Source of the DNA: Patescibacteria group bacterium
GTDB taxonomy: Bacteria; Patescibacteriota; Microgenomatia; Daviesbacterales; UBA10151
DNA: 64,000 nucleotides
Direction: 5' to 3'
Assembly: GCA_943356485.1 (NCBI GenBank)
Contig: CALRFD010000001.1
Span: 137,716-201,715 of the forward strand
Numbering within the stretch: the first letter of the stretch is position 1; each line of letters begins with the position of its first letter. Of the stretch, positions 42,198 to 53,332 are shown one piece after another. A program made the translations under genes and the position numbers. Under the pieces are notes generated by a model. It did not search any database. It was not told the DNA's origin and was given only the letters and a program-made list of their open reading frames with translations.

Positions 42198-42290
42198 GTA
42201 TAAAGTTTGCCATAACTTTTCCTTTTTGGATTCCTTATTGTATATTGGCATAATTATAGATTAATAGTATTATGGTATAAGAATTATACT

Positions 42291-42313
42291 GTTGAAGCTA
42301 AGAAAGCAACTAA
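42291..42313 (+). repeat. 23-bp direct repeat GTTGAAGCTAAGAAAGCAACTAA, right copy.
   Basis: Exact match to 39937-39959. Confidence 0.8.
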
Positions 42314-42355
42314 GGGGAGTTTTTAGTTAGCCAGTGAGCTTAAACACCTTTTTCA

Positions 42356-42952
42356 TCAGTTTGATTGTACCCACCGAAAGTAAGTCTTTTTATCCTGTTG
42401 GTGTTCAATATAACCTTCAGGTTTAAATTGTGCAGTTTCTAGGGTAACAACGCCACTGTAAAGAGTATATTTTGTATTTAATCCCGGATATCCGCCAGAT
42501 TGCCGCATCTCTTCTTTCTTGCTGCCAAGTTGTACTACGTCGTCTGCAATATCTGTAATCCCTAATTCTTCTAAACAAGCCCGCTTGATATTTGCTAAGA
42601 TATTTTCATCTCCTGGTTTTAACTTTTCCGATAAAGATCCGCCTAGATTTCTTTTTCTCTGCCTTCCGTCTGTAAATTCCTGATGATCTTCATAAAGGTG
42701 AAATTCAATACCGCTATGAAGGTCTTGGTACTTAACATCCACAATTACAACTCTAATCTCTCTTAGTAACTGCCCATTTTCCTCTTTAGTAAGTATACTT
42801 TCTCTGTTAAGCAGTTCAGTTGCGAGGTGTCTGATCGTCCTGGCGCTGCCTTTTCCCCATAAAGCTAGATCAATACCCGCAAGAGTTAATTGCTGACGTA
42901 GCGCAAATTCTTTATCAGATAATACTCTTTCAGATACAGATAATTTTTCCAT
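42356..42952 (-). CDS. Hypothetical protein (198 aa).
   Basis: ORF only. Its start overlaps/abuts the upstream ORF 42954..43811. Confidence 0.4.
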   Translation of the reverse strand: MEKLSVSERVLSDKEFALRQQLTLAGIDLALWGKGSARTIRHLATELLNRESILTKEENGQLLREIRVVIVDVKYQDLHSGIEFHLYEDHQEFTDGRQRKRNLGGSLSEKLKPGDENILANIKRACLEELGITDIADDVVQLGSKKEEMRQSGGYPGLNTKYTLYSGVVTLETAQFKPEGYIEHQQDKKTYFRWVQSN

Positions 42953-42953
42953 T

Positions 42954-43811
42954 TTAATCTGATGGGTCTTTTTCCATTAATTTGACCTGCCACAGTTTTG
43001 AATCAGTTTTAGTTTTACTAATAGATAAATAGAATCTTTGACCGGTTTTTGTATATTCAAAAGTAACTATTTGATTATTAATATCGGGTAACTTATCTGA
43101 TAATACCCATTCCTCTGGTTTGTCACTATCTCTTTCAGTCAGGAAAATAGAGATCTTTGGGACTATGTTGCCTTCTGAATCCTTGAAAGTATTAAACCTG
43201 ATGTTGGTAATAGTAGAAGTGTTATCATTGACTTTCCAATTAAGGCCTCTTCCAGCCTCGATTACAAACGGGCTTTGCAGACCGTTTTGTTCTGTATACT
43301 TAAGATTAGGATAGTTTGGTTCGCGAAAAATTCTCCAGCCGGTTGCGGATACAGTCGAGGGCTTTAATCCCAAAGTATGATTTTTCTCAAAATCGATAGC
43401 GGCATTTTTATCTGCCTCTTTTCTTTGCTGCTGACTTACTCTGGAGGCCTCTTCTCTAGCTGCGCTGGCTTCCGGACTGGTATAATCATTTATCCCAAAT
43501 CCGATTGTAGTCCCAAGATAAGCCCCTGCGATAATTGCTGCTAGAACTTTAAGTTTAGCTTTAACGTTTCTTCTGACTATGAGGACTCTGGTTCTTTTTA
43601 ATTCCAGCTCAAACTCTCTTAATCTGGCGAATTGCTCTTGTGTATCCAGAGTGTGTTTTATTGCCTGGTCATAACCTTTTGGATAGCCAGGATCTTGTTT
43701 AATAGCCTGTAATACTCTTCTGGTGGCTTGGATATCTTCTATAGAGACCCTAGCGACAAACGTCTCCTTTTTTTCTAAAAAATTTATTTCTTTTGGTTCT
43801 CTATCAGCCAT
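42954..43811 (-). CDS. Hypothetical single-pass membrane protein (285 aa).
   Basis: Transmembrane helix LKVLAAIIAGAYLGTTIGFGI. The extracytoplasmic C-terminal domain is unassigned. Confidence 0.4.
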   Translation of the reverse strand: MADREPKEINFLEKKETFVARVSIEDIQATRRVLQAIKQDPGYPKGYDQAIKHTLDTQEQFARLREFELELKRTRVLIVRRNVKAKLKVLAAIIAGAYLGTTIGFGINDYTSPEASAAREEASRVSQQQRKEADKNAAIDFEKNHTLGLKPSTVSATGWRIFREPNYPNLKYTEQNGLQSPFVIEAGRGLNWKVNDNTSTITNIRFNTFKDSEGNIVPKISIFLTERDSDKPEEWVLSDKLPDINNQIVTFEYTKTGQRFYLSISKTKTDSKLWQVKLMEKDPSD

Positions 43812-43901
43812 TGGCGTATTATAAGTATGTAATGAGCTAAAGTCAAACTATGGGGTTATCACAATTTGACTTATTAGTCCCATAAGAATATAATCCCCTG
43901 C

Positions 43902-45221
43902 ATGGTTGAAGCAAGTAGGGATTATAAACCAATAGATTTACTCGCTACGTTAGGAGAACCCTTTAAAGGAGAACTTAATGACTCCCCTGATGCATTTCAA
44001 ATGGTTGAGGCTGCGAAATGGACGATGAGGAATGTAGCAAGAAGGGTTGTTGGAAGGGAAAGATTAGCCTCGCAAACTTTACTTGCTCTTTTAACCAGAG
44101 AGCACCAGCTAATTTTTTCAAGAACAGGGACAGCTAAGTCTTTATATGCAGAGACTGTTTTCAGTCAATTTACCGCAGAAACTTTTTCAATACAATTCAC
44201 GACTGGAACTACTGAAGAGGCGGTTGTAGGAGCTTATGATTTAAATAAATTTAGGGAGGGCACTATTTGGCACAATACTGAAAAATCTTTAGTTACTGCT
44301 GATTTTGCATTTTTGGATGAATTCATGGATGCAAATGATATGGTACTGCGGTCAATCTTAGGGATTTTAAATGAAAGAAAATTTTCCAAAGGAAAACAAT
44401 TTGAGCAAGCCAGGCTTCATAGCGCTATAGCTACCACCAATTATGTCAGAAGGTCAGAGATGTCAGAGGCAGTACTTGACAGGTTTCTTTTCCAAGCCAG
44501 GATTAACCCTGAAACAAGTCCGTTGGATCAGCTTTTGATTGATAGGGTTTATTCTCTGCAAAACGGGAGAGTTAGTAAACCTGAAAATCCGGTACCGCTA
44601 GACGTTTTAAAGGAGCTGTCAAAGATGGTTAAGGGTGAGGGGGATACTAATATTAGTGCTTCACACTCTCTACTTTTTTTAAAAAATCAACTAATTAAAA
44701 ATTATATCGATATGTTGTTTGACCAAAGACGTGAGCAAAATCAAAATGCGGAAAAACTTTATATTAGCCCGAGGAAATTGGCAAAAGCCAGGGATGTTTT
44801 AAATGCCTCAGCCATACTGCAAGGCAGGTTTGATGCATCCGTGGAAGATCTACCTGCATTAAGGTTTATTTTAACAACTATTTCAGGGAGCGAAGAGGAT
44901 GGTGATTCGGAGGAGGAAATTTTTTATCAGGCTTTAGATTATACGCTGACTTCTTTTAGCCGGGAAGATCTTAATGATGTTGAAAAAATTATGTTTACCT
45001 ATGAATATTATGAGGCTTATAAAGACGGTAAGTTAGTTGAAGCAGTCAAAGCCAATCTTCCTGGTATATTTAGAATAGTGATGAGCCTTTTCGGTATTGT
45101 ATCCTGGCAGGATGTTAATAAGGAAGTATTTTTGCAAACCCTTCAGGCTATGAAAATTAAGAGTCCTGCAGTAGTGCAACTTAGGGATAACCTGAAAGAT
45201 AAGATTATCAAATATGGCTAA
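43902..45221 (+). CDS. MoxR-family AAA+ ATPase, RavA-like, with a degenerate Walker A.
   Basis: [18 protein letters not shown] aligns to RavA [45 protein letters not shown] aligns to [36 protein letters not shown] aligns to EALYDRMLI. Confidence 0.7.
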   Translation: [439 protein letters not shown]

Positions 45222-46578
45222 AGAGAGAGAAAGTTCAGTCAGAGGAGTAAATGAAAATTTGTCGGATTTTTATAAATCCTGGGGAGCATTTGATATCTTT
45301 GAGAAAACGCTGGATCAGCTACCTCCGGACTGGTTAAAAATCTTAAACATTGCCAGAAATCTACTAGACGGGAAAAGAATTCCTGGAGTCAACCTTCCTT
45401 CAACTGTCATGGCTCTGGTAGAGAAGGATCAGGAAATAGTTTTTGAAAAAAGATATATGACCAGAAAATGGCAGCAAAAATCCATCCTACCAGCCACCAG
45501 CATTGATGTTAAAAATCTGGAAGATTTATCTCAATTGCCTAAAGTATTGCCAGCCCACCTCCTGCTGCAGGGCGAAGCGCCGGAAATCTTTGCTTATCGG
45601 GCTCTGACTCATTCTCTACCAATAGCCGAGATGCAAAAACCAAGAGCAATAACAGAAGAAAAATCAGAAACCTTGATGGAACTTGTACCAAAGGCAAGAG
45701 AAAGAACTTCTATGCGGCAAAGAGTCTATGCTTTAATGGATGTTTCTCTCTCAATGAAATCTAATTACAAATTAATCTTTTCCAAAGCTGTCATGTTGGC
45801 TTATTTGGCAAAAGCCCACGAGGAAGGATCAGAGGTTTATTTCCGAGCTTTTGCCGGCAGTGTCGGGGATCTGGTAGCCTGCATCTCTCCTGAGGATTTT
45901 CCTGCTTTGGCAAAGAGGATCTTAGGATACAGGGTCTATCATGGTACTGATATTAGGTATGCTCTCACAACTGCAGTTGAAGATATTTCTAGGATGGAGA
46001 GATTAACTGACAGTAGAAGAGCTAAAACTGAGGTTTTGCTAATATCAGATGGTGAAAGCTATACCCCTATACCCCTGATGCCTAAAAATATAGCTTTGCA
46101 TACCCTGCATTTAGTCGGAGGAGGCGAGGAGTTTATATTAGATAAAGAGTTAAGGCAAATGAGTAACACTTACACCAGGATAGATACAGGAAATTTAATG
46201 CTGCCAAGTATTTCAGAGGAGGCTTGGTTTATGTTTGAGGAGATTGAGAGGCTGGAAGATCAAACAAAAGGTCTGACAGATTCAGAGATGAAATACGATA
46301 GAAGACTGCAGCAAAGAGTTGAAGCTATAAGAAAGCATACAGAAGCATATAGAAAAATCGATTCCAGCGAGAAAGTTAGGGAAAATGCCGGCAGAGCGCA
46401 AAAACTGCATGATAAAGTTTCCTTAGAAAAAGCAGAGGAAAGATTAAAGAAAAAATTAGAATTAATAAGGTATTTTATAAAAAAACTTATGCAAAAAATT
46501 AAGTCTTTCCGATTGCCTAAATTTGACAGAAAGAAAGTATTAGCCGGGAGTTTATTTGATTTTAGAATAAAGGACTAG
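45214..46578 (+). CDS. von Willebrand factor A (vWA) domain protein, ViaA-like partner of the MoxR ATPase.
   Basis: MIDAS motif in RVYALMDVSLSM (DxSxS), then a Thr and LLISDGES. Overlaps the MoxR gene by 8 nt (coupled). Confidence 0.65.
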   Translation: MAKERESSVRGVNENLSDFYKSWGAFDIFEKTLDQLPPDWLKILNIARNLLDGKRIPGVNLPSTVMALVEKDQEIVFEKRYMTRKWQQKSILPATSIDVKNLEDLSQLPKVLPAHLLLQGEAPEIFAYRALTHSLPIAEMQKPRAITEEKSETLMELVPKARERTSMRQRVYALMDVSLSMKSNYKLIFSKAVMLAYLAKAHEEGSEVYFRAFAGSVGDLVACISPEDFPALAKRILGYRVYHGTDIRYALTTAVEDISRMERLTDSRRAKTEVLLISDGESYTPIPLMPKNIALHTLHLVGGGEEFILDKELRQMSNTYTRIDTGNLMLPSISEEAWFMFEEIERLEDQTKGLTDSEMKYDRRLQQRVEAIRKHTEAYRKIDSSEKVRENAGRAQKLHDKVSLEKAEERLKKKLELIRYFIKKLMQKIKSFRLPKFDRKKVLAGSLFDFRIKD

Positions 46579-47521
46579 GATTACCTATTACCTTAACATT
46601 ATTTGTAGTTTGATTTGCTACTTCTTCCAAAGTTATTCCTTTTAACTCTGCAATCAGCCTTGCAATTTCTAAAACTGCAGATGGTTCGTTTCTCTGCCCC
46701 CGTTTGGATTGGAGAGGTAGGAAGGGGCAATCAGTCTCCAGGCAAATTTTATCCAAAGGCAGAATTTTAACAGCCTCTCTTAAGTATTCATTTTTAGGAT
46801 AGGTTAGAGTTCCTCCAAATGACACTAAAACATTAGACATTTTGAGTATTTGGTGAGTGGTTCTGGTCAAACCACTGTAGCAGTGGAAAATAGCCGGGTA
46901 ATCACCTATTAAATTTAACGTTTCATCCCAGGCTTCGCAGTTTTCTGGATTTTTAGAGCGGTCATCCCGGCAGTGAACTATTAAAGGTAAGTCTAGCTTT
47001 TTAGCCAGATCAATCTGGGCTTGAAAAAGTCTTCTTTGTAGCTCTTTTTCGTGATTGTGAGAAAGTTTACCGGTTCGACTGAGCTCACCGTCGAAGTCCT
47101 GAACTTGTTTCAGGGTGGCAATCTCTGTTTCTCTAAAGTAATAATCCAGCCCGCATTCCCCAACAGCGATAACCTTTTTCGGATTTTCTCTATAAATTTT
47201 TTCCAGTTGAGTAATGTCTTCGTTGACATTTTTGCAACGATCGTCGTATTTTTGTCCAGGTAAGGAATAATTTATAGCCTCATGCGGGTGAATACCGATT
47301 GTTGAATAAACCTTCAATCCTGGAATGTCTGACAGTTTACCGGTTCGACTGAGCTCACCGCCGAAGTCCTGAGCTTGTCGAAGGGCTTTTTTCGATGATT
47401 CAATATCTACCCCAACATTTATAATGGTAGTTACACTGGCATCAAGAGATCGTTTTATAACTTCATCAAAATCCGGTTTAAAACTGTCCCAATATAAATG
47501 GGCATGGGTGTCTATCAGCAT
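46562..47521 (-). CDS. tatD: TatD-family metal-dependent deoxyribonuclease. Carries two in-frame ~48-bp repeat insertions.
   Basis: MLIDTHAHLYW, GIHPHEA, AVGECGLDYY, LIVHCRDD and the C-terminal DCPFLPL. Duplicated inserts encode QDFGGELSRTGKLS and QDFDGELSRTGKLS. Confidence 0.85.
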   Translation of the reverse strand: MLIDTHAHLYWDSFKPDFDEVIKRSLDASVTTIINVGVDIESSKKALRQAQDFGGELSRTGKLSDIPGLKVYSTIGIHPHEAINYSLPGQKYDDRCKNVNEDITQLEKIYRENPKKVIAVGECGLDYYFRETEIATLKQVQDFDGELSRTGKLSHNHEKELQRRLFQAQIDLAKKLDLPLIVHCRDDRSKNPENCEAWDETLNLIGDYPAIFHCYSGLTRTTHQILKMSNVLVSFGGTLTYPKNEYLREAVKILPLDKICLETDCPFLPLQSKRGQRNEPSAVLEIARLIAELKGITLEEVANQTTNNVKVIGNPSPLF

Positions 47522-48527: not shown

Positions 48528-49892
48528 ATGTCAGTAACTGTTGAAACAATCGGATCAGAAGATTTATACAGAATGAGAAAAAGCCATCGGGTAGTAGTAA
48601 CCGGCATGGGTGCTGTTACTCCTTTAGGGCTTAATGTAGAGGATACCTGGCAAAACCTTATTGCCGGAAAATCAGGTATTCAAAGAATCAGTACCAGTGA
48701 TTGGGAAGGCAAAGTGGATGCAAAAAACAGCGAGGTTGATATTGCCGGTTTGGTTATGGGTTTTGATGCTTCAAAGTATATCCCAAGAAAAGAATTAAAC
48801 AGGATGCACAGATCAGCACAATTTTCTATTGTAGCTGGTCGAGAAGCTCTAATACAGGCTGGTTTATTTGATGCTTCAACAAAAATGGAAAAAGGTGCGA
48901 CTCCTCTTACAGGGGTAAGTCCTGAAGCATTTGGCGCGATTTTAGGAACTGGTATTGGAGGAGGTTCTGAAATAGCGGATATAGAAGATGTTATCCGGGA
49001 TAGAGGTGACTCGCGTGTTAGTCCTTTTGCCATGTTACTGCTTTTACCAGAAAGGGTAAGTACTGTTCCGAGTATGTGGCTTAGCTGTCAAGCTGAAGTA
49101 GGAGAGAAGACTGCTGCTTGTGCTTCCGGTGCGCAAGCAATTGCAGATGCATATAGAGTTTTAGAACGGGGAGAAGCAGATGTGATGTTAGCAGGTGGCA
49201 GTGAGGCAGCGGTTCATCGGGTAGCTCTATCCTCTTTTAATAATATGCATGCTTTAAATAATATAAGTAATGATAACCCAAAAGGAGCCAGTAGCCCTTT
49301 TGATCAAAAAGCCGCTGGCTTTGTGATGGGAGAGGGAGCAGGAGTACTTTGCTTAGAAACCTTAGAGCATGCATTAGGTAGAGGGGCAAATATTTTGGCA
49401 GAATTAGTAGGTTATAGTAATACAGCTGATGCTCATCATGACACAGCTCCCTTGCAGGCAGGGGCAGAGAGAGCTATCAGGAATGCCTTAGCTATGGCAG
49501 AGATTGATCCAAGTCAGGTTGACTATATTAATGCTCATGGTACTTCTACTCCTACTAATGATCCAAACGAACTGAAAGCTTTTAGAGCTGTTTTTGAAGA
49601 TAGCCTAGATGATATTTCAATCAGCTCTACTAAATCAGCCACAGGTCATTTACTGGGAGCAGGCGGAGGGATAGAAGCAGTTTTTTCTATCCAGGCTATC
49701 CTGGAAGGGATAGTGCCGCCAACGCTTAATTTACAAAATCCAATTAAAGAAGGTGAGGGATTAAATCTGGTACCTTTAGCCGCACAAAAAAGAGAAGTTA
49801 ATATAGCTATGTCTGATTCGCTTGGATTTGGCGGACTAAATTCAGTCTTAATTTTCAGAAGATTTCAGAAAAGTTATCAAGAGGTAGTCTAA
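48528..49892 (+). CDS. fabF: 3-oxoacyl-ACP synthase II (KAS II).
   Basis: VVVTGMGAVTPLG, active Cys in ACASGAQAIADA, and His residues in INAHGTSTPTND and KSATGHLLGAGG. Confidence 0.9.
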   Translation: MSVTVETIGSEDLYRMRKSHRVVVTGMGAVTPLGLNVEDTWQNLIAGKSGIQRISTSDWEGKVDAKNSEVDIAGLVMGFDASKYIPRKELNRMHRSAQFSIVAGREALIQAGLFDASTKMEKGATPLTGVSPEAFGAILGTGIGGGSEIADIEDVIRDRGDSRVSPFAMLLLLPERVSTVPSMWLSCQAEVGEKTAACASGAQAIADAYRVLERGEADVMLAGGSEAAVHRVALSSFNNMHALNNISNDNPKGASSPFDQKAAGFVMGEGAGVLCLETLEHALGRGANILAELVGYSNTADAHHDTAPLQAGAERAIRNALAMAEIDPSQVDYINAHGTSTPTNDPNELKAFRAVFEDSLDDISISSTKSATGHLLGAGGGIEAVFSIQAILEGIVPPTLNLQNPIKEGEGLNLVPLAAQKREVNIAMSDSLGFGGLNSVLIFRRFQKSYQEVV

Positions 49893-49898
49893 AAAATT

Positions 49899-50648
49899 AT
49901 GCCAACATTGGAATTAGAAGGAAAAGTAGCAATAGTAACAGGTGGAACAAGGAGTATTGGCAGGGCTATAACAGACAAGCTTTTAGAACATGGGGTCAAA
50001 GTTGCCTTTAATTCCCTTAATCCGGATGGTGAAGAGGGGAAACAGTTAGTAGAAGAGCATGGGGAGAATGTGTTGTGGGTTCCGGGAGATATTTCCAGTC
50101 CTGAAACAGGTTCAGATTTGGTTAAGAAAACAATTGATAAGTTTGGCAGGGTTGATATCTTAGTTAATAATGCTGGAATTAACAGGGATACGTTATTAAT
50201 GAGGATGAGTGATGAAAAGTGGGATGAGGTTTTACAAGCTAATCTTTATGGCTCAATGAGGGTGACCAGGGCAGCTCTCCGGCCAATGCTAAGACAAGTT
50301 GAGGGCGGTTCTATTATTTTTATATCATCAGTAGCCGCGCGCGGTAATCCGGGACAAGCAAATTATGCCGCTTCAAAAGGAGGGGTGGAAGCATTTATGA
50401 GGGTTGTGGCTTTGGAGGGAGCAAGCCGTAATGTCAGGGCAAACGCGATAGCTCCTGGTCCGGTAGAAGAAACAGATATGCTGAATAATCTTAAACCGGA
50501 GCAAAGAGAAGCCCTTATAAATATGGTTCCTATGAGAAGAGCCATAAGAAGGGTGGAAGTTGCAAATACTGTTTTGTTTTTAGCCTCTAATCTGTCTTCC
50601 GGGATTACCGGACAGGTTATAAATGTAGATGGGGGGATGATTAGATAA
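49899..50648 (+). CDS. fabG: 3-oxoacyl-ACP reductase (SDR).
   Basis: VAIVTGGTRSIGRAI, NNAGI, YAASKGG (YxxxK) and IAPGPVET. Confidence 0.85.
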   Translation: MPTLELEGKVAIVTGGTRSIGRAITDKLLEHGVKVAFNSLNPDGEEGKQLVEEHGENVLWVPGDISSPETGSDLVKKTIDKFGRVDILVNNAGINRDTLLMRMSDEKWDEVLQANLYGSMRVTRAALRPMLRQVEGGSIIFISSVAARGNPGQANYAASKGGVEAFMRVVALEGASRNVRANAIAPGPVEETDMLNNLKPEQREALINMVPMRRAIRRVEVANTVLFLASNLSSGITGQVINVDGGMIR

Positions 50649-50650
50649 AT

Positions 50651-51916
50651 ATGGCTGAGCGGCCGATAGCTGTTATAACAGGAACTTCCAGGGATGTGGG
50701 GAGATATGTCTCTATTGGGTTAGCCCAGGCAGGTTATGATATTTTAGGCGTTTATAGAAATCCCCAACATGACCAGGATCAAGCAGACGTTATAAAGGAA
50801 GTTAAAGGTCATAAAGCCAGGATGGTTGCAGTCAGGGCAGACCTTTTAGATGAGGCTACGCCAGATTTAGTATTAGCAAAATTAGAGGATTTTGGGGGTA
50901 AAGTTAGCGCTTTTATTGATAATGCTGCCGGAGGGTATGGCTTAACTAAAGAGGAGGCAAGAGAGATAAATGTTGCTGCTCCGCAGAGATTAATGGATAA
51001 GCTAAGGAATAACTTAACGCCTGATGCGGCGGTAGTTTTTAACACCAGCATTCCTGCCCATTTATTTCACACCCTGCAAGCAGACGATATGGCATTAATG
51101 GGAGATTATGATTTCGTTGCCCGGAGTAAAAACGAAAGAGAAAGGATGCTAAGGTCAGAATTTGTTGGAGATGGACAAAGACTGGCGGTAGTAGTAGGTA
51201 ATGGGTTGGATGGCAGTTTTGTAACCAGGCTTTTGAAGGGGAAAAATAAGTCTTTTGTTAGCCGGATGTTGAGCCTTTCAGATACAGATTATTTCCCGAC
51301 AGTGATGGATATGGCAACTGCTGTGGTTAAGGTAGTAAGAGGCAACTATCCAACAGGACACACAGAATATGTAGGGATTGCGCCCCAACATCAGCTTTAT
51401 CCTTCCAGACCTTTGGGATCTAGTCTAATTGACGCTCCGCAAATGAGGGAAGGGTCGATTTTATCCAGAGAGGAAATTTATAATATTATCCCCCACCGCT
51501 GGCCGTTTATGTTTATTGGAGGAGTTTCGGAGGTTGAATATGGTAAAAGAGCTGTTGGTTCATTGGTAGACTTAACTAATCCTGATATTAATTGGACTGG
51601 CGGACATTTTCCAGACTATCCTTTGGTTCCAGGGGTAATTACTCAAGAAGCTTTGCAGCAGTTGGGGGCTTTGGTTGTTTTAGGTATGACTGAGCATAGA
51701 GGTATGACTGCTGTTTTAACAGGAGTTGATCAGATGCGTTTTTTAAGGCAGATTCTTCCAGGGGATAATATAAGATTGGAGGTTGAAGGCATGGACATTA
51801 CTGAAGAGAAAAGAAGGATTACAGGTATGGGTCATGTGCGGGCTTTAAATCACTTAGGTAAAGTAGCAGTAGAGGGTAGGGTGTCATTTGCGCTTATTAA
51901 TCCGGCTAAAAAATAA
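50651..51916 (+). CDS. Fusion protein: N-terminal SDR domain with a FabI-type Y-x6-K motif (putative enoyl-ACP reductase), plus a C-terminal FabZ-type hotdog 3-hydroxyacyl-ACP dehydratase.
   Basis: N-terminus IAVITGTSRDVGRYVSIGLAQAGY and YDFVARSK (cf. FabI YNVMGLAK). C-terminus IIPHRWPFMFIGGV...NWTGGHFPDYPLVPGVITQEALQQ (cf. FabZ LPHRYPFLLVD...FFQGHFP..PIMPGVL). Confidence 0.65.
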   Translation: MAERPIAVITGTSRDVGRYVSIGLAQAGYDILGVYRNPQHDQDQADVIKEVKGHKARMVAVRADLLDEATPDLVLAKLEDFGGKVSAFIDNAAGGYGLTKEEAREINVAAPQRLMDKLRNNLTPDAAVVFNTSIPAHLFHTLQADDMALMGDYDFVARSKNERERMLRSEFVGDGQRLAVVVGNGLDGSFVTRLLKGKNKSFVSRMLSLSDTDYFPTVMDMATAVVKVVRGNYPTGHTEYVGIAPQHQLYPSRPLGSSLIDAPQMREGSILSREEIYNIIPHRWPFMFIGGVSEVEYGKRAVGSLVDLTNPDINWTGGHFPDYPLVPGVITQEALQQLGALVVLGMTEHRGMTAVLTGVDQMRFLRQILPGDNIRLEVEGMDITEEKRRITGMGHVRALNHLGKVAVEGRVSFALINPAKK

Positions 51917-51976
51917 TATGAATATGATCTTGTTTTTTAAAAATTTAAATGTTAATGTCTGCTAAATTATAAAAAT

Positions 51977-53332
51977 ATGCCATCTACACCAGAAACATCA
52001 AAAGAAAAACGTTCATCCCTTTCCAGAGGTTTAGAAAAAGCAGCTAATCTAATAGACGCAGCTTCGGATAGATATGGGAAACCTACTGATAGAGAGATTG
52101 TAGAGAGGCTTTTGCAAAGAGGTATTAATACTGTTGTCAGCGTTCCCTGTTCTATAACTCAAACTATCGCCGCAGAGTGGCATGATCTGTCAAAAAAAGG
52201 ACAGATGCGTTTAATCAATACAGTAAATGAACATAGTGTAGTTGGGATAGCTGCCGGGGTTTGGTTTGGAACAGGCGAAGTGCCTCTTATACATATGCAG
52301 AATTCCGGAGTAACTAATTCTGCAGATGGTTTGATTTCTTTCGCTAAGGTTTATAAAATCCCGATACTGGAGATGGTTACCTGGCGGGGTAATGATTTAA
52401 CAGATGACAGTGAACCACACCAAGAGATAGGTAATATGACTGATGATTTAACGAAGTTACTGGCAGGTAAAGAGAATAACTTTGGGATGAAAGATGGCAG
52501 GGGGTTTATGCGAAGAATGGATGAGGCAATCAGGATGGCTCAGATGGGCGGAAGAAGCGTCATTAGACTTTCCCCTGCTGCTTTTAGAAAGAGCTACCCT
52601 ATGTCGCTCCCGGTTGATTTAGAGGAAGAAACTGAAGATAAAATTTTGGCTAGAAGAGAGAGAATTAAAGAAAGTAAAGGTAGTAATATTGGCGAGGTTC
52701 TTCGAAGATATAGGGTTTCCAGGGGAGAAGCCATGGCTGAGATTGTTCATCAACACCCTGATGCGGCGATTTTATTTGCTAATGGTTTTAACGCCAGGGA
52801 AGCTCAAGGAAGAAATACAATAGACCGGGAAGGTAATTTTTACAACGCCGGCTATATGGGTGGCACACTGGCTATTGGTTGGGGAATTGCCAAAGCAAAT
52901 CCTGATATAAAGGTGGTGGTTGTGGATGGTGATCAAAATGCCATGATGGGTAAGATGCATGAACATTTTGGAGATGGGGATTATCCGGATAACTTGAGTT
53001 GGTATATTTTAGATAACAGAATAGGCGCATCCGTTGGAACTTCAAAAAGCCTTAAGCTACCCTGGTGGTATTATGACGTAGCTCGTGTTATAAGGACTGT
53101 TCCTGATGAACCAGGCTCATTTAAGCTGCCTCGGGTAAAAGAGCAGGGAAAGTATTTTGATAAAGAGGCAGCTAAACAGCTGGCAAGAGCAAAAGAGATG
53201 GGTCCTTTACCTGTGCTAACATTGATGTTCCGCGACTGGATTGCAAAACAAACACAGGTTAATATAAGAGCCAATGTATCCAATAATGTTGCTGAGGTGT
53301 TAAGAGTTAATTCAGCTATGTTAGAAGCTTAA
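51977..53332 (+). CDS. Thiamine-diphosphate-dependent decarboxylase (sulfopyruvate/phosphonopyruvate-decarboxylase-like, fused alpha/beta halves).
   Basis: N-terminal half VVSVPCSITQTIAAEW...NEHSVVGIAAGVWFGTGEVPLIHMQNSGVTNSADGL (cf. ComD/Ppd). C-terminal half GGTLAIGWGIAKANPDIKVVVVDGDQNAMM (TPP-binding GDG-type motif). Confidence 0.6.
   Translation: MPSTPETSKEKRSSLSRGLEKAANLIDAASDRYGKPTDREIVERLLQRGINTVVSVPCSITQTIAAEWHDLSKKGQMRLINTVNEHSVVGIAAGVWFGTGEVPLIHMQNSGVTNSADGLISFAKVYKIPILEMVTWRGNDLTDDSEPHQEIGNMTDDLTKLLAGKENNFGMKDGRGFMRRMDEAIRMAQMGGRSVIRLSPAAFRKSYPMSLPVDLEEETEDKILARRERIKESKGSNIGEVLRRYRVSRGEAMAEIVHQHPDAAILFANGFNAREAQGRNTIDREGNFYNAGYMGGTLAIGWGIAKANPDIKVVVVDGDQNAMMGKMHEHFGDGDYPDNLSWYILDNRIGASVGTSKSLKLPWWYYDVARVIRTVPDEPGSFKLPRVKEQGKYFDKEAAKQLARAKEMGPLPVLTLMFRDWIAKQTQVNIRANVSNNVAEVLRVNSAMLEA

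Follow-up and report, generated by a model that had tools for sequence, protein, structure and literature searches.

A MoxR-class ATPase and its overlapping vWA partner gene in a Patescibacteria genome: a probable two-gene remodeling module related to RavA-ViaA

What becomes of an AAA+ ATPase whose nucleotide-binding loop departs from the textbook pattern, and what does it do together with the metal-site protein encoded by the overlapping gene? These questions are raised by two genes in a 64,000-nucleotide stretch of a Patescibacteria group bacterium genome (contig CALRFD010000001.1, positions 137,716 to 201,715; hereafter, the window). The first gene encodes a MoxR-class ATPase, and the second a protein with a von Willebrand factor A (vWA) domain carrying a metal ion-dependent adhesion site (MIDAS). 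MoxR-vWA pairs are among the most widespread and least understood of the bacterial chaperone-like systems and, to our knowledge, only a handful of them have known clients. An initial annotation of the window compared the pair to Escherichia coli RavA and ViaA, wondered whether the ATPase had become a regulatory pseudoenzyme, and considered a conflict system or a larger functional unit. The answer developed below is that the two genes probably form a chaperone-like remodeling module of the MoxR-vWA kind, and that they represent a widespread, uncharacterized family, probably sister to RavA-ViaA.

The first gene encodes a MoxR-class AAA+ ATPase. Its core is nearest to that of RavA, but it is not a RavA orthologue. 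Its Pfam matches are PF20030 bpMoxR (6.6e-32, 110.7 bits), AAA_5 (1e-14), and AAA_lid_8 (5e-7). A family profile built from 28 sequences, when run against all Protein Data Bank (PDB) sequences, retrieves RavA at 2.5e-41 and the MoxR-proper entry 2r44 at 9e-13. The AlphaFold2 (AF2) model, computed from an alignment of 70 sequences, is of high quality (predicted local distance difference test, pLDDT, 90.4; predicted template modeling score 0.89), and Foldseek places RavA (3nbx, E=4.4e-15) on top of its list, then 2r44 and MCMs. These closest structures assign the enzyme to AAA+ clade 7; with regard to the pre-sensor-2 insertion, the agreement with this clade is one of overall fold at the level of the whole model, not insert by insert. 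Profile searches and structure prediction therefore keep the protein within the MoxR/RavA-like group.

How close to RavA is it? BLASTP against the E. coli K-12 protein (locus L169; L numbers designate the genomic loci compared here) gives 28% identity over 279 amino acids (aa) with E=8e-18, and it reproduces both blocks of the original alignment: SRTGTAKS against GPPGIAKS first, and then FLDEFMDAN...ILNERKF against FLDEIWKAG...INERQF. This level of identity, once described as unusually close, is ordinary for MoxR subfamilies. The RavA profile alignment covers only positions 35-324 of the ATPase; therefore, the part common to the two proteins is the AAA+ core and its lid. Neither LARA_dom (PF20265) nor ATPase_RavA_C (PF12592) was found in a Pfam scan of the window ATPase, whereas E. 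coli RavA, the control, carries both the LARA domain (1e-39) and the RavA C-terminal domain (1.8e-23). Against the NCBIfam RavA equivalog NF010054, the window protein reaches 56.5 bits, and the cutoff is 681. Of the label “RavA-like MoxR”, then, the class and the nearest core stand, and orthology does not.

The next question is whether this enzyme is alive. The classical Walker A motif reads [AG]-x4-G-K-[ST] (PROSITE PS00017), and the window protein leaves it at position 1 (S73) and at position 6 (A78). The departure at position 1 is the majority state of the family: of the 118 best matches with a recognizable P-loop, 88 have Ser here, 27 have Gly, and 3 have Ala. At position 6, 98 of these proteins carry Ala, as RavA does, and the other 20 carry Gly; the Walker B pair DE is found in 113. 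The codons are equally informative. A count over 144 distinct genomic loci finds the serine of position 1 written 71 times as TCN and 61 times as AGY, and a switch between these two codon families needs two nucleotide changes. Because both are in use, the serine must have been retained by selection over a long divergence, and this rules out the sequencing artefact that had been considered for the substitution. As judged from these sequences, the Walker A serine is an ancient, selected, family-wide trait and not a loss of function; it may tune the nucleotide cycle.

The rest of the active site gives the same answer. The 70-sequence alignment, whose members share 27-76% identity, shows no variation at G76, K79, E140, N180, R194, or R291; D139 is kept by at least 90% of the sequences, and the residue at the position of S80 is S or T. 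In RavA, the residues in contact with the nucleotide are A51/K52/S53, D114, the arginine finger R170, and the sensor 2 residue R251 (PMC6987120); in the alignment, the conserved catalytic set of the new family maps onto them. Since residues needed only for hydrolysis, and those needed for catalysis between subunits, are both conserved, a working ATPase is strongly argued.

With regard to the second protein, the vWA domain, which has the Rossmann-like vWA fold, is its best-defined part. The AF2 model has a pLDDT of 72 overall and of 83-94 over residues 168-325; the N-terminal region is modeled with long β-hairpins and the C-terminal one as helical, both with moderate confidence. The complete DxSxS motif reported for this protein is indeed there, and its MIDAS residues D176, S178, S180, T245, and D279 are invariant in 14 orthologues. 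The sole Pfam match is VWA_CoxE (9e-6), which at 25.7 bits remains below the gathering threshold of 26.4 and is also matched by E. coli ViaA, used as a control; in NCBIfam, what it matches is the vWA portion of a putative cobaltochelatase. The description “ViaA-like” finds no support beyond the vWA domain. When the partner was compared to ViaA with hhalign, only 116 columns, all in the vWA domain, were aligned, with a probability of 68%; the N-terminal regions are unrelated, and the domain order differs: the vWA of the partner is followed by about 130 further residues, whereas that of ViaA is C-terminal. The partner is a MIDAS adaptor, not ViaA-like in architecture.

An intriguing point is the end of this protein. 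The segment LELIRYFIKKLMQKIKSF has the highest hydrophobic moment of the partner (0.62) and a net charge of +4, and AF2 predicts a helix at residues 404-431. Such a tail is not a peculiarity of the window. In a set of 101 distinct orthologue tails, the moment has a median of 0.60 and the charge one of +4, and in 79 of them the equivalent segment ranks among the top 5% of the protein to which it belongs. A hydrophobic and basic helix-like segment is present within the last 40-60 residues in every phylum. CPR (candidate phyla radiation) and Chloroflexota orthologues also have in common an F-R-x-[KR] ending. Experiments on ViaA have demonstrated that its C-terminal arginine-rich amphipathic helix binds cardiolipin and phosphatidic acid (PMC9489729). 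The likeness between the two tails is one of a conserved physical property, without sequence homology. By this analysis, the tail helix probably tethers the partner peripherally to the membrane.

Are the two proteins made to work together? Both open reading frames (ORFs) were found exactly where the initial annotation had placed them, and they overlap by 8 nucleotides (nt): the junction reads AAA TAT GGC TAA, with the partner start, ATG GCT AAA, inside it. No obvious Shine-Dalgarno-like sequence is present 5' of the partner start in the junction sequence, and the overlapping junction is the classical layout for translational coupling. Four orthologue loci of the CPR (L165, L166, L167, and L168) have an identical overlap of 8 nt; in other relatives, the two genes are separated by a 1-nt gap or overlap by 14 or 1 nt. 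The E. coli K-12 genes ravA and viaA also overlap, by 7 nt (L169 3098-3104), so that overlap-based coupling of ATPase and vWA protein is common to both families. In a tblastn survey of 164 related loci, the partner lies directly downstream of MoxR in 124, and most of the others are truncated contigs. Partner identity is 45% in Microgenomates and 36% in Dehalococcoidia. The coordinates of all these features are collected in Table 1.

Table 1. Positions in the window of the gene pair, of the divergent membrane-protein gene, and of the neighboring ORFs
Feature	Position	Strand	Basis or remark
MoxR-class AAA+ ATPase, 439 aa	43902..45221	+	Pfam, family profile, AF2 and Foldseek
RavA-like AAA+ core and lid	about residues 30-325 of ATPase	+	Pfam, profile alignment, AF2
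Walker A / P-loop, S73-R-T-G76-T-A78-K79-S80	44118..44141	+	aligns to RavA G46-PPGIA51-K52-S53
Walker B, FAFLD139-E140	44304..44321	+	aligns to RavA D114-E115
Sensor 1 asparagine N180	44439..44441	+	invariant, 70 sequences
Arginine finger R194 (LDRF) = RavA R170	44481..44483	+	aligned to RavA YDRM; invariant
Trans-acting sensor 2 arginine R291 (ISPRK) = RavA R251	44772..44774	+	aligned to RavA VSDRR; invariant
Family-specific helical C-terminal domain	about residues 336-438 of ATPase	+	AF2, outside RavA alignment
8-nt overlap, MoxR stop / partner start, ATGGCTAA	45214..45221	+	sequence read; translational coupling
vWA/MIDAS partner, 454 aa	45214..46578	+	tblastn adjacency, AF2
Partner regions: conserved N-terminal 1-165; central vWA 168-325; helical C-terminal 333-431; basic tail	45214..46578	+	AF2
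vWA domain	45715..46188	+	central in partner
MIDAS, D176-V-S178-L-S180	45739-45753	+	T245 at 45946-45948, D279 at 46048-46050
Cationic amphipathic helix LELIRYFIKKLMQKIKSF, residues 415-432, putative peripheral membrane anchor	46456..46509	+	hydrophobic moment
Extreme C-terminal motif LFDFRIKD	46552..46575	+	tail listing; F450 invariant in 14 sequences
Plus-strand promoter, TTGACT-17-TATAAT	43866-43894	+	-10 ends 7 nt before MoxR ATG
Minus-strand promoter, TTGACT-17-TATAAT	43846 to 43818	-	-10 ends 6 nt before TM285 ATG
TM285, 285-aa single-pass membrane protein	42954..43811	-	lineage-specific third gene
TM285 cytoplasmic N-terminal domain, conserved, motif Y43-P-x-G-Y-D48	residues 1-85	-	alignment
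TM285 transmembrane helix, residues 87-107	43491-43553	-	prediction
TM285 C-terminal domain, about 175 aa, predicted extracellular	after transmembrane helix	-	
Nudix-like ORF, 198 aa	42356-42952	-	begins 1 nt after TM285 stop; by-eye motif label
Type II toxin-antitoxin pair, overlapping genes, 96 and 95 aa	41623-42197	+	second is ParE/RelE/YafQ-type, PF05016 6.3e-6
Caspase-like ORF, 517 aa	39990-41543	+	His-Gly...Cys (VILAGHGNP ... VLISCSTG), by-eye label
TatD-family hydrolase	46562-47521	-	PF01026 8.4e-63; convergent, 3' ends overlap vWA gene by 17 nt

The family is not confined to one branch of the bacterial tree. The ATPase search gave 1,095 matches among the candidates scored, and the dyad occurs in Microgenomates (CPR), Chloroflexota, Planctomycetota, Spirochaetota/Leptospirales, and Riflebacteria; the Chloroflexota members are Dehalococcoidia and Tepidiformales, the cultured Tepidiforma flava (L029) among them. 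The company that the dyad keeps changes with the phylum: glycosyltransferases in Microgenomates, and an MFS transporter and phosphoenolpyruvate carboxykinase in Dehalococcoidia. In Spirochaetota (L055-L084 and others, e.g., L056 4836-11980) the block comprises adenylate kinase, a small multi-pass membrane protein, a PAS histidine kinase, MoxR, the vWA partner, a convergent NAD-dependent epimerase, and signal peptidase. Cluster c2, the histidine kinase that lies directly upstream on the same strand, was considered as a component of the system and set aside as synteny, being conserved in Spirochaetota only. Its position could hint at regulation; synteny alone may account for it.

In the CPR lineage, however, there is a third gene. 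Of the two minus-strand ORFs that had been listed just upstream of the dyad, both of which exist, the nearer encodes TM285, a protein with a single membrane span; basic residues precede the transmembrane helix and indicate an N-in topology. A TM285 homologue divergently adjoins MoxR in L001/L005 (28% identity, E=2e-26), L165, L166, L168 (33% identity, E=8e-44), and L170, and an alignment of four sequences, with L165 and L166 included, retains 50 invariant columns. In all, six independent CPR loci have a divergent homologue. An exhaustive profile search of 1.84 billion proteins gave 52 representatives of the family, and TM285 has no match in Pfam, NCBIfam, or PADLOC. A distant relative in L173 is not beside MoxR, and the gene that follows it is without a significant MoxR match; by eye, that gene looks RpoB-like. 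The contig of another relative, L172, is too short to show its neighbor. As for the larger upstream unit envisaged at the outset, TM285 is conserved with the dyad in CPR relatives only, and the other upstream genes, such as the Nudix-like ORF, are not: within 42356-46578, the conserved neighborhood comes down to TM285 and the dyad.

The tie between TM285 and the dyad is best seen in the DNA between them. The intergenic region is only 90 nt long (43812-43901) and holds two σ70-like promoters, each with 11 of the 12 consensus positions, which are the two best matches within 42200-46800. Their -35 boxes are placed back to back and form an inverted repeat, AAGTCAAA...TTTGACTT. The -10 boxes end 6-10 nt before the start codons, so that leaderless mRNAs are likely for both genes. 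The same architecture, GCATATTAT / AAAGTCAAAC / TTGACTT / TCCTATAAC / TATAAT, is found in all five CPR loci examined (window 43812-43901, L001 7904-8000, L165 7082-7213, L166 1499-1627, and L168 1911-2005), and 42 columns are invariant, although the identity between the flanking proteins is only about 30-60%. This conserved bidirectional promoter ties TM285 to the dyad as a divergently transcribed pair in the CPR lineage. The conserved blocks between and after the -35 boxes (TATAGG and TCCTATAAC) could be an operator. A side remark concerns L166, where MoxR is called from a TTG at 1628 and an in-frame ATG lies 39 nt upstream (L166 1586-1630); this ATG follows the conserved -10 box by 7 nt, the spacing seen in the window, and the gene probably begins there.

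How might such a module work? The ATPase, presumably catalytically competent and of clade 7, would form hexamers in which the nucleotide is held by K79, S80, D139, and E140 of one subunit and by R194 and R291 of its neighbor, as in RavA. The partner would be a co-translated adaptor: its MIDAS vWA domain would capture an acidic residue or a peptide of the client, its conserved N-terminal region would probably dock onto the ATPase, and its cationic amphipathic C-terminal helix would probably anchor the complex on the cytoplasmic side of the membrane. The client would then be remodeled or set free at the expense of ATP. Within the CPR lineage, TM285 would be, through its cytoplasmic domain, the best candidate for the client or for a membrane receptor. 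One can go a step further and imagine that the CPR dyad and TM285 form a three-part transmembrane device, in which the amphipathic helix of the partner keeps the MoxR-vWA machine at the inner side of the membrane, ATP-driven remodeling of the cytoplasmic domain of TM285 switches or assembles its extracellular domain, and the Ser-type P-loop tunes the nucleotide cycle. This extension is speculative and, taken as a whole, unlikely. If it were true, it would represent inside-out signaling or surface remodeling in episymbiotic ultra-small bacteria, conceptually like the activation of integrins through their MIDAS.

Several observations weigh against the remodeling module as drawn here, or against parts of it. 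What the sequences show is homology, conserved motifs, coupled genes, a broad phyletic spread, and synteny; the hexamers, the hydrolysis of ATP, the binding to the membrane, and the role of TM285 as client are inferred. The Walker A loop does depart from the classical pattern at two positions, and the effect of its serine on nucleotide affinity or turnover is a conjecture. The N- and C-terminal regions of the partner have no recognizable homologues, and the model there has a pLDDT of 50-80. The membrane tether is argued from a calculated hydrophobic moment, and a few orthologue tails, e.g., that of L035, score poorly. No conserved client gene was found outside the CPR. TM285 is absent from two of the eight CPR-clade loci (L085 and L167) and from all the other phyla; therefore, it cannot be the universal client. 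In addition, one member of the TM285 family (L171) is not beside MoxR.

Other explanations of the pair have to be weighed against this reading. The dyad might be a maturation factor for a metal cofactor or an enzyme, like CoxD-CoxE, NorQ-NorD, or CbbQ-CbbO, that inserts a metal into, or reactivates, one specific enzyme, soluble or membrane-bound, encoded elsewhere in the genome and does so without being tethered to the membrane. This is the most commonly documented role of MoxR-vWA pairs (PMC7159879, section 8), and the matches of the partner to VWA_CoxE and to the cobaltochelatase vWA agree with it. Yet the first of these matches is below threshold and is given by ViaA as well, so that it does not discriminate; no candidate enzyme gene is conserved beside the dyad in any phylum, and the conserved cationic amphipathic tail would be left unexplained. 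We consider this account unlikely. Somewhat less probable still is a regulatory pseudo-ATPase, in which binding or hydrolysis has been abolished and the protein acts as a nucleotide-independent scaffold or sensor. The two Walker A departures are what suggested it, but one of them, the alanine at position 6, is present in RavA, which is an active ATPase (PMC6987120); the other is replaced by glycine in members that belong to the same family and are otherwise unchanged. With the serine selected family-wide, and with E140, N180, R194, and R291 invariant and D139 nearly so in 70 diverse sequences, all the catalytic residues are kept, which is unexpected in a dead enzyme.

Nor do the data favor the core of an NTP-dependent conflict or defense system of the MoxR-vWA ternary type, recruiting the nearby caspase-like, Nudix-like, or toxin-antitoxin genes. 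The idea has an understandable origin: the best Pfam model, PF20030, is named after the MoxR-vWA-β-propeller ternary systems, and a RelE/ParE pair and a putative His-Cys protease-like ORF are within 4 kb. However, PF20030 is matched even better by E. coli RavA (191.2 bits, against 110.7 for the window ATPase); because of this, the model points to the RavA-like branch of MoxR and does not diagnose a ternary conflict system. Such systems are characterized by one or more further proteins (PMC7159879, section 8). In the 164 loci, no gene for a β-propeller, a STAND NTPase, FtsH, or an effector recurs, and none of these loci contains the Nudix-like, caspase-like, or toxin-antitoxin genes. When five proteins (MoxR, its partner, TM285, and the Nudix-like and caspase-like ORFs) were compared to PADLOC-DB 2.0, there was no match save an insignificant one of the partner to AbiLi (E=0.032). 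The neighborhoods are of the housekeeping kind and syntenic within phyla, as the Spirochaetota block with its adenylate kinase, histidine kinase, epimerase, and signal peptidase exemplifies. All of this makes a conflict core very improbable. The weakest candidate is a true RavA-ViaA orthologue acting, as in E. coli, on respiratory complexes or lysine decarboxylase. RavA is the nearest relative that is both characterized and solved, and in E. coli, too, the two genes overlap; against this are the equivalog score, 56.5 bits where the cutoff is 681, the missing LARA and RavA_C domains, the 28% identity, and a partner that resembles ViaA in the vWA domain only and has another domain order. We give this possibility almost no credence. 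The remodeling module, a sister of RavA-ViaA and not a copy of it, remains the reading that we prefer, with moderate confidence.

What does the finding mean? The family defined here has more than 1,000 ATPase homologues in at least five phyla, with Tepidiforma flava as a cultured member, and current annotation gives its proteins no name beyond “AAA family ATPase” and “vWA domain-containing protein”. The S-x-x-G-x-A-K-S P-loop is a warning to annotators that a deviating motif does not, by itself, mean a dead enzyme; likewise, a bpMoxR Pfam match is not to be taken as evidence of a conflict system. The putative membrane-targeting tail and the CPR-specific membrane partner offer testable handles on the client question. 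No established view is overturned, and the new elements are modest ones: a family-wide Ser-type P-loop, a conserved tail, and a CPR membrane partner with a leaderless-looking bidirectional promoter.

The surroundings of the dyad in the window contain other genes that attract attention. The 198-aa ORF next to TM285 has a Nudix-box-like stretch, E-x7-R-A-C-L-E-E-L-G-I (ENILANIKRACLEELGI), and the 517-aa ORF has a His-Gly...Cys arrangement reminiscent of caspase-like or CHAT proteases; neither has a match in Pfam, NCBIfam, PADLOC, or the PDB sequences. The label “caspase-like” thus finds no profile or structure to lean on, and the toxin-antitoxin pair, which sits between this ORF and the Nudix-like one, also separates it from the dyad. 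Another neighbor, an ORF of 591 aa, looks by eye like a membrane glycosyltransferase. In the tblastn comparison of the 164 loci, none of the Nudix-like, caspase-like, antitoxin, ParE, TatD, and 591-aa genes co-occurs with the dyad, and a Crp-like regulator of the window gave a single match, in L035, probably coincidental. Compared with its profile, the TatD hydrolase seems to have an insertion or an internal duplication: it contains two copies of QDFGGELSRTGKLS, and 308 of its residues fall on a profile of 253 positions. Farther downstream, at 48528-53332 on the plus strand, are ORFs labeled by eye as a KAS-like ketosynthase, a short-chain reductase, a fused reductase/dehydratase-like protein, and a thiamine-pyrophosphate-enzyme-like protein; the GC content of this cluster, 0.40-0.42, is above that of its surroundings, and its content is unusual for a reduced CPR-like genome.

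How, finally, does the dyad compare with the systems already known? It is closest to RavA-ViaA of E. coli, with which it has in common the clade-7 core, the A-K-S ending of the P-loop, the Walker B DE, the arginine finger, the trans-acting sensor 2, AAA_lid_8, and overlapping co-transcribed genes, as well as a partner with a full MIDAS and a cationic amphipathic C-terminal helix, which in ViaA binds anionic lipids. The differences are no less clear: RavA has the LARA and RavA C-terminal domains and Gly at Walker A position 1, whereas the window family has another helical domain and Ser; ViaA has an N-terminal helical NTV followed by a C-terminal vWA, whereas in the window partner the vWA is central and the N-terminal region unrelated; and RavA-ViaA belongs to Gammaproteobacteria, whereas the window family occurs in CPR, Chloroflexota, Planctomycetota, and Spirochaetota. 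The MoxR-vWA-β-propeller ternary systems (Kaur, Burroughs, Iyer and Aravind 2020) are alike in the PF20030 match and in a vWA partner with MIDAS aspartates, but they possess a third component, which the window family lacks in the 164 loci, as it lacks a defense-island context. NorQ-NorD, CoxD-CoxE, and CbbQ-CbbO follow a similar logic, with an ATPase hexamer and a MIDAS adaptor, and the vWA is similar to the NorD/CoxE type; however, they belong to other MoxR subfamilies (CGN and others) and lie beside the genes of their client enzymes. The BatA/BatB-MoxR aerotolerance operons of Bacteroides and Leptospira are different again: their vWA proteins are integral to the membrane and their operons are multigene, with DUF58 and TPR genes, whereas the window dyad is a two-gene operon whose partner is soluble and ends in an amphipathic tail.

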